Positions 5,910 to 8,088 of a stretch of DNA of 64,000 nt are shown here, piece by piece. The notes under the pieces are model-generated. The model was not told where the DNA came from, ran no database searches, and saw nothing but the letters and a program-made list of their open reading frames with translations. Numbering within the stretch: the stretch's first letter is position 1; each line of letters starts with the position of its first letter. The stretch is taken from IMG/VR virus record IMGVR_UViG_3300045988_147321; one strand, 5' to 3'. The DNA is from a virus (taxonomy: Duplodnaviria > Heunggongvirae > Uroviricota > Caudoviricetes). A program made the translations under genes and the position numbers.

Positions 5910-5916
5910 TAAATTT
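5900..5916 (+). promoter_or_regulatory. C1 operator, perfect 17/17 match, overlapping the dmt stop codon
   Basis: ATTGCTCTAATAAATTT; followed by an inverted operator-like half (AAATTTATTAGTGTAAT, about 5910-5926). Confidence 0.55.
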
Positions 5917-6581
5917 ATTAGTGTAATATCGCCCCAATGAATCGTGATTTATAGAGCGATTTAGCTGTTAGCCGCGACAGGCGCGGCGGTAAGCATGGCT
6001 GGGCCTAGTCCTCCCAGACAAACCACCGAGTTGCCAGGTTGACCATGCGCCTAAGTGGCAACGCCGAAGTGCGTTACGAGCTTCCAGTTTGCCCATCTTC
6101 GGGTGGGCGTTTTTTCAGGGTTTTCGTCATGGTTAGCGACTTTGCGGCGGTTTAGAAACTGACCATTAAAGTAAATGCAAACGATGATCTGATGATGGTA
6201 GCGGCCTAAGAAACCAGATGCCACGGGGTATGAGTCGTCCCCCGTCAAAAAAATCGACCGCAGAGTGTCCCCGTCTGTGTATTAGGGAACGGGGAGGCAC
6301 AACAGGTAAGGGCGCTGGTGTGATTAACCAGATGAACGAGAAGGGGCCATCTGTTGGTCAGCGTCCTTTCCTGTTGCGTTTTCTTTTCAGCGTAACAGCG
6401 GTGCTTAACAGCACTTTGGGTACAGTTCCACGAATTTACGGGTATATCCCGTCATGCTGAAGGCGCTAATCACGCTGGAAGCCAGGGTTGTGCATCCCCT
6501 GTTACCGAATTGCAGCCAGGGCGCGGTGCGCCGAAAAGCATACGGAGGTGGAAGCCCTCGCCGGAGACGTACCCGGCAAGT

Positions 6582-6657
6582 GATGGTGTAGCTCAGCGGT
6601 TAGAGCGGTTGACTGTTAATCAACGGGTCGATGGTTCAAATCCATCCACCATCGCCA
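6582..6657 (+). tRNA. tRNA-Asn (anticodon GTT)
   Basis: Manual cloverleaf: 7-bp acceptor stem GATGGTG/CACCATC, D-arm GCTCAGCGGTTAGAGC, anticodon loop CTGTTAA, T-arm GATGGTTCAAATCCATC, CCA end. Confidence 0.8.
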
Positions 6658-6659
6658 AT

Positions 6660-6735
6660 GCCGGTTTAGCTCAGTTGGTAGAGCGCCTGCCTTGTAAGCA
6701 GGATGTCAGCGGTTCGAGTCCGTTAATCGGCACCA
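6660..6735 (+). tRNA. tRNA-Thr (anticodon TGT)
   Basis: Manual cloverleaf: acceptor GCCGGTT/AATCGGC (one G-U), anticodon loop CTTGTAA, T-arm GGTTCGAGTCC, CCA end; 2 nt after tRNA-Asn. Confidence 0.8.
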
Positions 6736-6738
6736 GCA

Positions 6739-7540
6739 CAACAGGTAAGGGTATTTTGCGACGTCGGAGATCGCCGAGCTTGGCAGAGGGTTCGAATCCC
6801 TACGAAGTACCCTTACCGTTGTGATGAATGCGCAGGCTGATGCGCGAAAGACATTGCAGCTATTGCGGAAAAGAGCTGTTCGGCGGGGCAATTAAACGCC
6901 CGTGAGAGTCTGAAATAACCGCAAGCCGGAGATCAGCACCGGTCATCACAACACAACAGGTAAGGGCATTCTCCCTTATGGGGCTTGGCTTAAATGCATC
7001 GAGTGCTCTTACCGTTGTGATGAAGTGCAGCTCTTTGAAGCAACCAGAAGATAAGCATCTGGCTTCACAACATAAACCGCAGGAACGACCAATAAACGGT
7101 AGTCCGTATGGAGAACACCCCGTTGAGGAAGAGGCCTGGCCGGAACCGTAACCGGCACTACAACGTTGAGAACACTGGCGTAACGGGGTCATATCCCAAT
7201 CTACGAATAAATGTTGCGTTGCAGCGTGACAACCAGTGTTCTCAACATTGTGGTGAATGCACAGGCTGATGTGCCGCAACTACAGTAGTGCGCGCTTTGC
7301 GGGGCTTGCTACAACCCTGTGTCGGAGTTCAGCACCGACCATCACAGTTTGATTCTCTGGCATGAGCATAACGCTGAAATAAGTCCAGTCTGGTGCGGCC
7401 CGATCACTCGCCGTTAGCTCCACGAAACGGAGCACGTAACAGGTAAGAGCATTCTCCTGTAACGGGTTCATATCCCAATCTACAGGTCCACCAGGAATGC
7501 TCTTTCCGTTGCGGTGAATGCGGCTAAGCGCACGCGGGGA
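6739..7540 (+). repeat. Four degenerate copies of a roughly 100-nt hairpin element in an ORF-poor region downstream of the tRNAs
   Basis: Shared modules: AACAGGTAAG(G/A)GCATTCTCC arm, CCGTTG(T/C)G(A/G)TGAATGC tail, GTAACGGGG(T)TCATATCCCAATCTAC loop; long perfect stems; copy 1 contains a tRNA T-arm-like GAGGGTTCGAATCCCT. Confidence 0.5.
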
Positions 7541-7662
7541 AATGGTTATATCTGTCCATTATTTCTCCTTATTTCCCCGTCCACGGTGGATAACCAGCCA
7601 AAGGACACCGGGAGGCACCCGGCACCGCAACCTTATTTCCCAACCAGTAATGAGGTTAATAA

Positions 7663-8088
7663 ATGCTCGGCATTCTCAAAAAGAAATTCCGCAAAGCGGC
7701 TGGCGGAGTCAAGAAGATGGAAAACCGTGATGCGGTGGAAGCGACTGTCTGGGGCGCATATTCCATTGCATACTCTGACGGCACCTGCGATGCGAAAGAA
7801 ATTGCAGTATTGGAAAAAACCATTGCAGCACTTCCTGCCTTTGCGCCGTTCTCCGGTGAAATTGCCCAGATGAGCGCCAATATTCGCGCTCAATATGAAG
7901 CCTCGCCGCGCCGAGCGAATGCCCAGGCTTTACGTGAACTGGCTGACGTGTCTGGAACTAATGATGCGGTAGATGTTCTGTGCCTATGCATTGATATTGC
8001 TGACCAGGATGGCATTGGGGCAGAAGAGCAGGAGCAATTGAAGAAAATTGCCCAGGCTCTTCAATTGCCACTGGAACAGTATATCTGA
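7663..8088 (+). CDS. tciA: TerB-like (tellurite-resistance family) protein
   Basis: 141 aa, helical, acidic C-terminus; TerB-like by composition; position matches P1 tciA. Confidence 0.5.
   Translation: MLGILKKKFRKAAGGVKKMENRDAVEATVWGAYSIAYSDGTCDAKEIAVLEKTIAALPAFAPFSGEIAQMSANIRAQYEASPRRANAQALRELADVSGTNDAVDVLCLCIDIADQDGIGAEEQEQLKKIAQALQLPLEQYI

Follow-up and report, generated by a model that had tools for sequence, protein, structure and literature searches.

The question addressed here is what phages related to P1 encode between a pair of tRNA genes and tciA. The DNA under study (the window) is a stretch of 64,000 nucleotides, IMG/VR record IMGVR_UViG_3300045988_147321, from a P1-like phage that shares 99% identity with JL22, RCS47 and P1 across positions 6100-7700. 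The reference P1 record has two minus-strand genes in this region, plp and upl, while an earlier note, made from the sequence alone, judged it to hold no credible open reading frame (ORF) and described four hairpin elements of about 100 nt. As will be seen, these elements are real, but they are two-part units, each consisting of a long hairpin (the clamp) and a compact scaffold (the A-type element). They form an array on the plus strand at 6737-7631, rather than ending at 7540, and a fifth clamp stands upstream at 6297-6380. The array is probably an untranslated, co-transcribed RNA of four structured units, likely processed into stable small RNAs (sRNAs) in early lytic growth. The earlier observation is in this way confirmed and extended and its interpretation partly supported; the two-part units, a loop-loop pairing, a link to the sRNA STnc100 and a very wide distribution had been missed.

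Results and Discussion

In the A-type scaffold, a closing helix P1 (7-9 bp, GTTGTGRTG/CAYCACAAC) surrounds two hairpins, Pa and Pb, with a variable insert between them; from Pb, the 3' strand continues directly into the 3' strand of P1, like the T arm of a tRNA. A covariance model of this scaffold, R1, was built in the present analysis with the four window copies among its training sequences, and on the 64-kb window it finds exactly these four, all on the plus strand. A1 (6818-6952, 81.1 bits) is closed by GTTGTGATGA/TCATCACAAC and has Pa at 6830-6845 and Pb at 6925-6943; all three helices are recovered in its minimum free energy fold. A2 (7014-7071, 27.3 bits, E 4e-5) is a short form with P1 and Pb (CCAGA-agataagca-TCTGG) and without Pa, and covariation links its Pb stem to the Pb stems of A1 and A3. 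In A3 (7247-7348, 67.6 bits), Pa is found at 7259-7274 (GCACA/TGTGC) and Pb at 7321-7339 (GTCGG/CCGAC). A4 (7508-7631, 40.8 bits, fold z -3.5) is the STnc100-like copy, and its P1, GTTGCGGTG/CACCGCAAC, is compensated relative to GTTGTGGTG/CACCACAAC. The subtype of A1-A3 is much the larger one and is characterized by Pa of the form GCGCA-GGCUGA-UGCGC and a 9-nt Pb loop, AGAUCAGCA.

The helices are maintained by compensatory change. Across an alignment of 53 copies that differ in their inserts, 92% of the cells of P1, Pa and Pb are paired, compared with 28-48% in slid controls, and 11 of the 19 pairs have changed on both sides, which none of 500 shuffles reaches. The earlier note had pointed to the pairing-preserving differences between the small hairpins GCGCA-ggctga-TGCGC (6830-6845) and GCACA-ggctga-TGTGC (7259-7274) as a sign of selection on RNA structure. 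Both hairpins are present, their compensation is one case of a covariation that runs through the whole family, and selection on RNA structure is strongly supported.

The loops of Pa and Pb are also complementary to each other. In main-type scaffolds the Pa loop (GGCUGA) can pair with the Pb loop; in A1 this brings together GCUGA (6836-6840) and UCAGC (6933-6937), and in A3 GGCUGA and AGUUCAGCA. Copies were selected on Pa-loop variants alone and the Pb loop, which had no role in the selection, was inspected afterwards. The two were found to switch together (GCUGA/UCAGC, GUCGA/UCGAC in several Pb contexts, GCCGA/UCGGC and GUUGA/UCAAC), and GUUGA also occurs with UCAGC, as a wobble. This helix is 96% paired, with C-G replaced by U-A in 11 sequences and U-A by C-G in 14. 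For the scaffold including it, 95% of the cells are paired and 17 of 24 pairs have changed on both sides (0 of 500 shuffles). At the level of sequence covariation, the loops indicate a kissing pseudoknot.

In one subfamily the Pa and Pb loops are replaced by genuine tRNA D-loop (AAUGGC) and T-loop (UUCGAUU) sequences. Since the loops pair and this subfamily has real D- and T-loop sequences, the scaffold is, judging from its sequence, tRNA-shaped, with a variable domain of 30-140 nt in the place of the anticodon arm. With tRNA and tRNA-like structures (the tmRNA domain, YrlA, mascRNA) it shares a 7-bp acceptor-like helix that runs on into a 5-bp T-arm-like hairpin, a D-arm-like hairpin whose loop touches the T-like loop, the D and T loops of some relatives, and a location among tRNA genes. 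Unlike tRNA, it has no anticodon arm, CCA end or identity elements, and the elbow of the main type is a 5-bp Watson-Crick kissing helix. The tRNA models are silent as well: ARAGORN reports only the three real tRNAs of the window, the Rfam tRNA model has no match in 6737-7631 at E up to 10, where neither a cloverleaf nor an anticodon arm was found, and the YrlA model matched only the real tRNAs. To call the elements decayed tRNA genes, as had been proposed, is wrong as it stands, for they are conserved, covary and match no tRNA model. A tRNA ancestry is plausible, given the tRNA-like shape, the true D and T loops in relatives and a clamp that surrounds a real tRNA-Gly (see below). A hammerhead-like or box C/D-like reading of GUGAUGA...CUGA was also considered and rejected; these strings are P1 and the Pb-paired Pa loop.

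The clamps were located by repeat analysis and by comparison with relatives. Their stems are about 20 bp, usually of the form CACAAC-A-GGTAAGRGCAYTG ... CAGTGCTCTTWCC-GTTGTG, and enclose a variable insert. The 16-mer CACAACAGGTAAGRGC of the 5' arm occurs six times in the window when up to three mismatches are allowed, compared with 0.64 expected, and 0 of 100 shuffles reach six. There are five clamps, all on the plus strand: H0 upstream of the tRNAs, with no A-type scaffold behind it, and H1-H4 in the array. H0 (6297-6380, CACAACAGGTAAGGGCGCTG...CAGCGTCCTTTCCTGTTG) is an inverted repeat with an exact 16-mer match and folds at -39.3 kcal/mol (z -4.7), while H1 (6737-6823) has a stem of about 24 bp with a bulged A (-40.5 kcal/mol, z -5.6). 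H2 (6952-7019, CACAACAGGTAAGGGC...GCTCTTACCGTTGTG; -33 kcal/mol, z -5.9) is a hairpin also present after tR' in a prophage of E. coli 55989. H3 (7156-7255; -47.9 kcal/mol, z -8.3) has a stem unlike that of the other clamps, CACTACAACGTTGAGAACACTGG/CCAGTGTTCTCAACATTGTGGTG, and an insert that includes GTAACGGGGTCATATCCCAATCTAC. It corresponds to copy 3 of the earlier note, whose perfect 14-bp stem is indeed there, like the other sequence features quoted: GTTGAGAACACTGG (7165-7178) pairs with CCAGTGTTCTCAAC (7233-7246) within 23-nt arms that are 91% complementary. H4 (7435-7513, CGTAACAGGTAAGAGCATTC...GAATGCTCTTTCCGTTGCG; -33.4 kcal/mol, z -6.7) is an inverted repeat, and the hairpin GGGTTCATATCCCAATC is common to its insert and that of H3. 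When the units were folded, as the earlier note had advised, the long hairpins gave z values from -4.7 to -8.3, and none of 200 shuffles was as good.

The inserts are highly diverse. Clamps with an identical 5' arm, 110 in number, hold 73 different inserts of 30-170 nt, which fall into 57 unrelated families; canonical T-arm hairpins occur in 9 of the 57, and GTTCGA is the most enriched hexamer. The insert of H1 holds a small hairpin and a T-arm-like hairpin, GAGGGTTCGAATCCCT at 6786-6801, containing a stem with a UUCRANY loop (AGGG-TTCGAAT-CCCT, 6787-6801, scored as a 5-bp T-arm stem). This is the T-arm-like sequence without a full cloverleaf that had been noticed before, and no tRNA is reported for the site by ARAGORN or by the Rfam tRNA model. 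As a separate observation, the H3 and H4 inserts (7179-7204 and 7459-7483) share the hairpin GUAACGGGKUCAUAUCCCAAUCUAC, the closing pairs of which are compensated (CGUA..UACG vs UGUA..UACA), and a related GGGCUCAUAACCCAAUC is found in a clamp-like hairpin of the lambdoid phage mEp460 (L003, ~2715-2745).

The clamp and the scaffold belong together. A stem of at least 15 bp ending exactly at the 5' edge of an A-type scaffold is present in 60 of 100 distinct loci, but only in 3 of 100 when the anchor is moved and in 6 of 100 when the upstream sequence is shuffled. This statistic tolerates one bulge, the ungapped version being uninformative owing to the conserved bulged A. The clamp stems, of which there are 47 distinct sequences, covary at every position and include 95 G·U pairs. 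On the opposite strand these would become mismatches, and the RNA is therefore read from the plus strand. The fold of the whole region has z = -8.6 for that strand and -3.3 for the minus strand. Lack of conservation of the stems in related genomes had been named in the earlier note as what would speak against it; among the relatives compared here, they covary.

The partnership also holds in distant bacteria. In a prophage of Massilia sp. TS11 (L251, 4484-4796), a clamp, CACACAGC...GCTGTGTG, encloses a genuine tRNA-Gly and is followed by a scaffold and a tRNA-Pro. At another locus (L214), the sequence that the clamp surrounds is tRNA-like: it has both a D and a T arm, besides a long insertion, and ARAGORN makes no call for it.

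A third small element is seen at many loci, in the form of short hairpins directly 5' of the clamps, with loops such as AACCGUAA, ACGAAAC or GAAAGA and usually followed by CA or GCA. The window has two on the plus strand: CCGG-AACCGTAA-CCGG at 7140-7155, directly 5' of H3, with similar ones preceding clamps in other phages, and GCTCC-ACGAAAC-GGAGC at 7417-7433, directly 5' of H4, which precedes clamps elsewhere in identical form.

In each unit, the nucleotides at the 3' end of the clamp also serve as the 5' strand of the P1 that comes next. This shared strand, X' (GUUGUGGUG), can pair either with the 5' end of the clamp or with the 3' end of the scaffold, giving two mutually exclusive helices. 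Where X' departs from the consensus, both partners are complementary to it in 19 of 41 cases; GTGTTGGTG, for example, occurs with CACCAACAC on both sides, and in the window H4/A4 shows the same double covariation (CGUAAC / GUUGCGGUG / CACCGCAAC). Because X' covaries with both partners, both helices seem to be selected. In constrained folding the clamp-closed and scaffold-closed states lie 2-5 kcal/mol apart, the scaffold-closed one being the minimum for units 1 and 4. Such a competition suggests sequential folding or a switch linked to processing.

With R1, a full-length element is found in each of 100 species-representative genomes that were picked by an exact 22-mer and had no part in building the model (E 1e-9 to 1e-19). 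Represented among them are Enterobacterales, Pseudomonas, Halomonas and Xanthomonadales, along with many Betaproteobacteria and some Alphaproteobacteria; a few matches in metagenome-assembled genomes of other phyla may be binning errors. Among 5,426 complete E. coli genomes, 200 have the full-length region and 1,338 at least part of it. About 85% of the related loci have no tRNA gene, so that processing signals for the tRNA transcript, another of the earlier proposals, is too narrow a description; where tRNA genes are present, they are adjacent and co-oriented. Pfam scans of the flanking genes in distant taxa were mostly uninformative apart from N-antiterminator genes in two prophages.

The modules are exchanged between phages. 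Copies of A1 with 98% identity lie downstream of cI in lambdoid phages and upstream of tRNAs in the Klebsiella siphovirus IME207. P1 itself lacks 196 nt (A1 and H2), P7 and Ro157 lack H1 and A1, and SJ46 has a repeat-mediated deletion. The conserved arms are evidently recombination points for module exchange, whatever the role of the RNA. In D6 and SSU5-like phage-plasmids, a tRNA-Ser(UGA) lies directly behind an A-type scaffold (D6, L006 2295-2381; L013 2749-2835); it occupies the site of the window spacer 7349-7434 and H4, and tRNA genes and RNA modules therefore sit in interchangeable slots. In Janthinobacterium, tRNA-like genes to which ARAGORN assigns four-base anticodons lie directly downstream of the scaffold (L303 4510-4593; L306 1995-2078).

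We now consider how the elements relate to known RNAs. The covariance-model search of the region against Rfam at E up to 10, a check already suggested in the earlier note, gave the real tRNAs, one weak match to STnc100 and otherwise only chance-level matches. The weak match is A4, with 39.2 bits against STnc100 (RF02076; E 2e-7), below the gathering score of 47; the core of the sRNA PasD1 obtains 37.7 bits. No Rfam family covers the A-type elements. R1 aligns end to end both with genuine STnc100 of Shiga toxin (Stx) phages (208 and 195 bits in Rfam) and with all four window copies. The elements show the STnc100 core, namely a 7-bp closing helix, a 5' hairpin, a variable middle and a 3' hairpin adjoining the closing helix. 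STnc100 and PasD share with them the closing helix (..UGGUG/CACCA..), the first hairpin, the variable middle and a last CCGG-loop-CCGG hairpin that abuts the 3' strand of the closing helix. As with these sRNAs, the array stands in a phage region near TerB/tciA- and DUF3927/tciB-type genes (bioRxiv 10.64898/2026.05.13.724894); the same 2026 preprint draws a structural link between PasD and STnc100 and mentions TerB genes close by. Both STnc100 and PasD are Hfq-dependent sRNAs, of lambdoid and Stx prophages. STnc100 copies are transcribed, one having been verified by Northern blotting in EDL933 (PMC5331693), and the stability of PasD depends on Hfq, with targets known from ligating and sequencing interacting RNAs (RIL-seq; PMC8550237).

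In the Stx2 phage PA2, a promoter, a short leader, an A-type core, a tail and a terminator make up STnc100, which is located downstream of stx2B, convergent with AsxR. PasD1 of enteropathogenic E. coli is built in the same way, has its RIL-seq seed UGUGAG in the tail 3' of the core, and adjoins a DUF3927 (tciB-like) gene. Since the core lies 5' of the tail and terminator, the A-type core is the 5' structural domain of these sRNAs. The idea that X', the 5' strand of P1, is a PasD-type seed was wrong, as the PasD seed lies in the 3' tail behind the scaffold. In E. coli E2348/69 (L368, 901-1299), RefSeq has a 132-aa hypothetical protein antisense over the verified sRNA PasD1, which may be a mis-annotation like plp and upl.

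The P1 copies differ from STnc100 and PasD in several ways. They lack a promoter, a 3' tail and a terminator of their own and are chained in an operon with tRNAs, a clamp stands in front of each and competes with it for the 5' strand of P1, and the A1-A3 subtype, unlike STnc100, is undetected by Rfam. The elements are thus variants of the STnc100/PasD kind, with A4 a near-member, in an unrecognised chained and clamp-coupled arrangement. No description of the wider scaffold family was found in the literature searched or in Rfam; the literal sequence strings of the elements occurred in no paper of that literature, and keyword searches gave nothing beyond the Pas/STnc100 papers.

Comparisons with other structured RNAs were also made. 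Long stems flanking a payload RNA are known from the processing stems of rRNA operons and from the RNase III sites of phage early transcripts (T7, the lambda N leader). The array resembles these in having near-perfect stems around a payload, in a polycistronic and largely untranslated transcript that also carries tRNAs. Unlike there, cleavage is only predicted here, the inserts are 30-170 nt and hypervariable, and the outer stem is shared with the next module. GOLLD and ROOL are large, ornate noncoding RNAs of phages and prophages that lie beside tRNA genes. The array is likewise an ornate noncoding RNA in phages and prophages near tRNA genes. In contrast to those large phage RNAs (bioRxiv 10.1101/2024.12.08.627333), to which the Rfam scan showed no sequence or model similarity, it consists of independent, exchangeable modules and not of a single large fold. 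Identity with AgvB was rejected on account of size and position: AgvB and AsxR are anti-sRNAs of 51-60 nt with a conserved 3' terminator region, forming a convergent pair downstream of PR' (PMC4104026). Neither has an Rfam match in the window region, while AsxR is detected where it is truly present, in a Stx phage.

The genomic setting bears on expression. The array is part of the ban operon, which on the plus strand runs through the dicF-like region, tRNA-Asn, tRNA-Thr, the array, tciA-C, a third tRNA and ban. According to the P1 and P7 records, C1-controlled ban-operon promoters and operators lie directly after dmt, with Pban upstream of the array; the operon is C1-repressed and therefore expressed at entry into lytic growth. 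tRNA-Asn(GTT) at 6582-6657 and tRNA-Thr(TGT) at 6660-6735, both on the plus strand, were found by ARAGORN and by the Rfam tRNA model (74.5 and 72.9 bits) and are co-transcribed neighbours of the array, whose last unit stops 31 nt 5' of the tciA start codon. No promoter or terminator consensus was found within 6737-7640. In this area the plus strand has a single terminator-like site, 6087-6119, with which the dicF-like region ends. The terminator signals of the earlier proposal are likewise not borne out, as no hairpin in 6737-7631 is followed by a U-tract.

Two observations concern the DNA upstream of H0. Positions 6024-6125 are annotated as "dicF-like" in P1, and the Rfam DicF model has no match there at E up to 10. 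The stretch 6120-6215 is noncoding and conserved (TTTTCGTCA..GCGACTTTGCGG..TTTAGAAACTGACCA..AAATGCAAACGATGAT); by eye, it recurs behind a clamp in the E. coli 55989 prophage (L011, ~2590-2680), and in Rfam it gave weak permuted tmRNA matches only (E 0.03).

Of the functions listed in the earlier note, small RNAs fits best, since the scaffold is the core of STnc100 and PasD. For processing, stability and targets of the P1 RNAs, we argue from the architecture and by analogy with these two sRNAs. Derepression of Pban would give a long untranslated transcript, on which the clamp stems and the tRNA-like scaffolds would direct nucleases (RNase III, E or P) to cut out small RNAs together with the tRNAs. 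Being compact, the scaffold would then protect the resulting small RNAs, and the variable inserts and flanking single strands may provide their specificity as base-pairing regulators of host or phage mRNAs.

It is important to point out that some results weigh against this proposal. STnc100 and PasD have their own promoters and terminators, and the PasD seed sits in a 3' tail; the P1 copies are devoid of tails and terminators and may therefore act differently. A1-A3 reach no Rfam family, even at E = 10. For antisense targets of the inserts in the 64-kb window, the best matches were 11-13-mers, which is at chance level. Furthermore, knock-downs of plp and upl had no effect on plaque formation by P1 (PMC10695390), and any function is therefore dispensable in the laboratory.

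Several other explanations have to be weighed against processed sRNAs. The main rival, which we regard as unlikely, is that the elements are cis-acting elongation signals of the nut, put or boxA type, making the polymerase resistant to Rho and terminators as it crosses the untranslated ~1.75 kb between Pban (near 5910) and tciA (7663). The module pair always occurs in leaders or intergenic parts of long antiterminated operons, as do the put RNA and the lambdoid nut sites in the leaders of early and late phage operons: it is found after cI/pL, just after tR' downstream of Q, and directly upstream of N. The last case is that of a Providencia (L312 3382-3869) and a Yersinia prophage (L319 346-874), where the scaffold directly precedes an N-type antitermination gene (PF25694), the position of lambda nutL. 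The 3' arm of the dominant clamp is UGCUCUUUCC or UGCUCUUACC, which we take to match the boxA consensus known from antitermination sites (nut and rrn), and in divergent clamps GYUCUY is found 11 times on the 3' arm and twice on the 5' arm, with purine-rich 5' arms in 46 cases vs 21. In the window, the 3' arms of H2 (7005-7013, UGCUCUUAC) and H4 (7499-7507, UGCUCUUUC) hold such a boxA-like string (GCUCUUUA-like). Unlike in nut and put sites, however, it is base-paired in the clamp and is missing from many clamps, and the Pa loop, being paired with the Pb loop, is not a free boxB-type loop. Moreover, a signal that modifies the polymerase does not need four consecutive units, STnc100 and PasD are separate sRNAs, each having a promoter and a terminator of its own, and HK022, which carries put, has no such module: put RNA, of ~70 nt with two stem-loops (PMC9378689), was rejected as an identity because a search of the complete HK022 genome with R1 (E up to 10) gives no match and no clamp or scaffold arm motifs occur there. 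Less likely still are tRNA mimics that would either use the tRNA maturation machinery (RNase P and T-loop modifying enzymes) or serve as decoys for host defences that target tRNAs, complementing the phage tRNAs. The 7-bp P1 continuous with Pb, the elbow-like pairing of the loops, the subfamily with true D and T loops, the T-arm hairpins and GTTCGA among the inserts, the adjacent and co-oriented tRNA genes and the Massilia tRNA-Gly clamp would all agree with mimicry. The absence of an anticodon arm and of a CCA/discriminator context, the silence of ARAGORN and the Rfam tRNA model, the majority of loci without tRNA genes, and a main-type Pb loop of 9 nt that is not a T-loop speak against it.

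Recombination or mobility sites acting at the DNA level (boundaries of module exchange, or a miniature inverted-repeat element), with the RNA structure incidental, would account for the mosaic losses in P1, P7, Ro157 and SJ46, for the near-identity of A1 in unrelated phages and for near-invariant arms around unrelated inserts. We consider this very improbable, since on the other strand the 95 G·U pairs would be A·C mismatches, nothing at the DNA level gives a reason for the covariation of the loops, the orientation follows the direction of transcription in all annotated contexts, and no recombinase is consistently linked. A sponge for the sRNA GcvB, like AgvB, in which repeated single-stranded CACAACA would titrate the R1 seed of GcvB, is to be given equally little weight. 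CACAACA begins H0, H1 and H2 (6298-6304, 6737-6743, 6952-6958), is unpaired once the scaffold P1 closes and is the published R1 target consensus (PMC4104026), and the PasD1 targets include the amino-acid transporter gene gltI. It forms, however, one side of conserved helices and in other taxa varies in step with its partner, AgvB itself is a different RNA, of 51-60 nt and near PR', and the family reaches into Alpha- and Betaproteobacteria. GcvB is not known from these two classes. The complement of CACAACA, GUUGUGAUGA, for its part resembles the GcvB seed itself. Hardly credible, finally, is that the region encodes the minus-strand proteins Plp (a putative lipoprotein) and Upl of the reference P1 record. 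ORFs of 139 and 63 aa do exist on that strand and are annotated in NC_005856 and JL22. The ORF length and C-terminus shift with the 196-nt indel (not a multiple of 3), in SJ46 the ORFs are joined in another way, in P7 and D6 they are missing, and no Pfam family is matched, so that the earlier judgement of no credible ORF is upheld. VDWDM(T/N)PL is common to both "proteins" solely through the DNA repeat, the P1 plp coding sequence (CDS) overlaps the 3' end of tRNA-Thr by 30 nt in antisense (L001 2106-2135; 69472-69501 of the P1 record), and the covariation obeys RNA pairing rules and not codon structure. The RefSeq Prokaryotic Genome Annotation Pipeline places no feature under full-length copies among the matches listed, and the annotators of P7 left the region empty.

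A bolder reading, which is possible but doubtful, would make the clamp and scaffold a class of phage RNA element in its own right, a general programmable RNA cassette of Proteobacterial phages, with a two-state device, its own maturation logic and diversifying payloads. The X' device could time folding or self-processing and display hypervariable payloads, sometimes real tRNAs. A new self-cleaving or RNase P-guided step could be involved, and the payloads could be aimed at hosts or rival phages.

Conclusion

For about 900 bp of P1 and many of its phage-plasmid relatives, the present results would mean re-annotation from two doubtful CDSs, plp and upl, to an RNA array. They tie STnc100 and PasD, two poorly understood sRNAs of pathogens, to a far larger structured family that is missing from Rfam and is extremely conserved, with an exact 22-mer recurring across Alpha-, Beta- and Gammaproteobacteria. 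The kissing pseudoknot and the two competing helices provide a concrete and testable structural model. The question that is raised is why temperate phages exchange a fixed scaffold with hypervariable inserts beside tRNAs and in operons controlled by antitermination.

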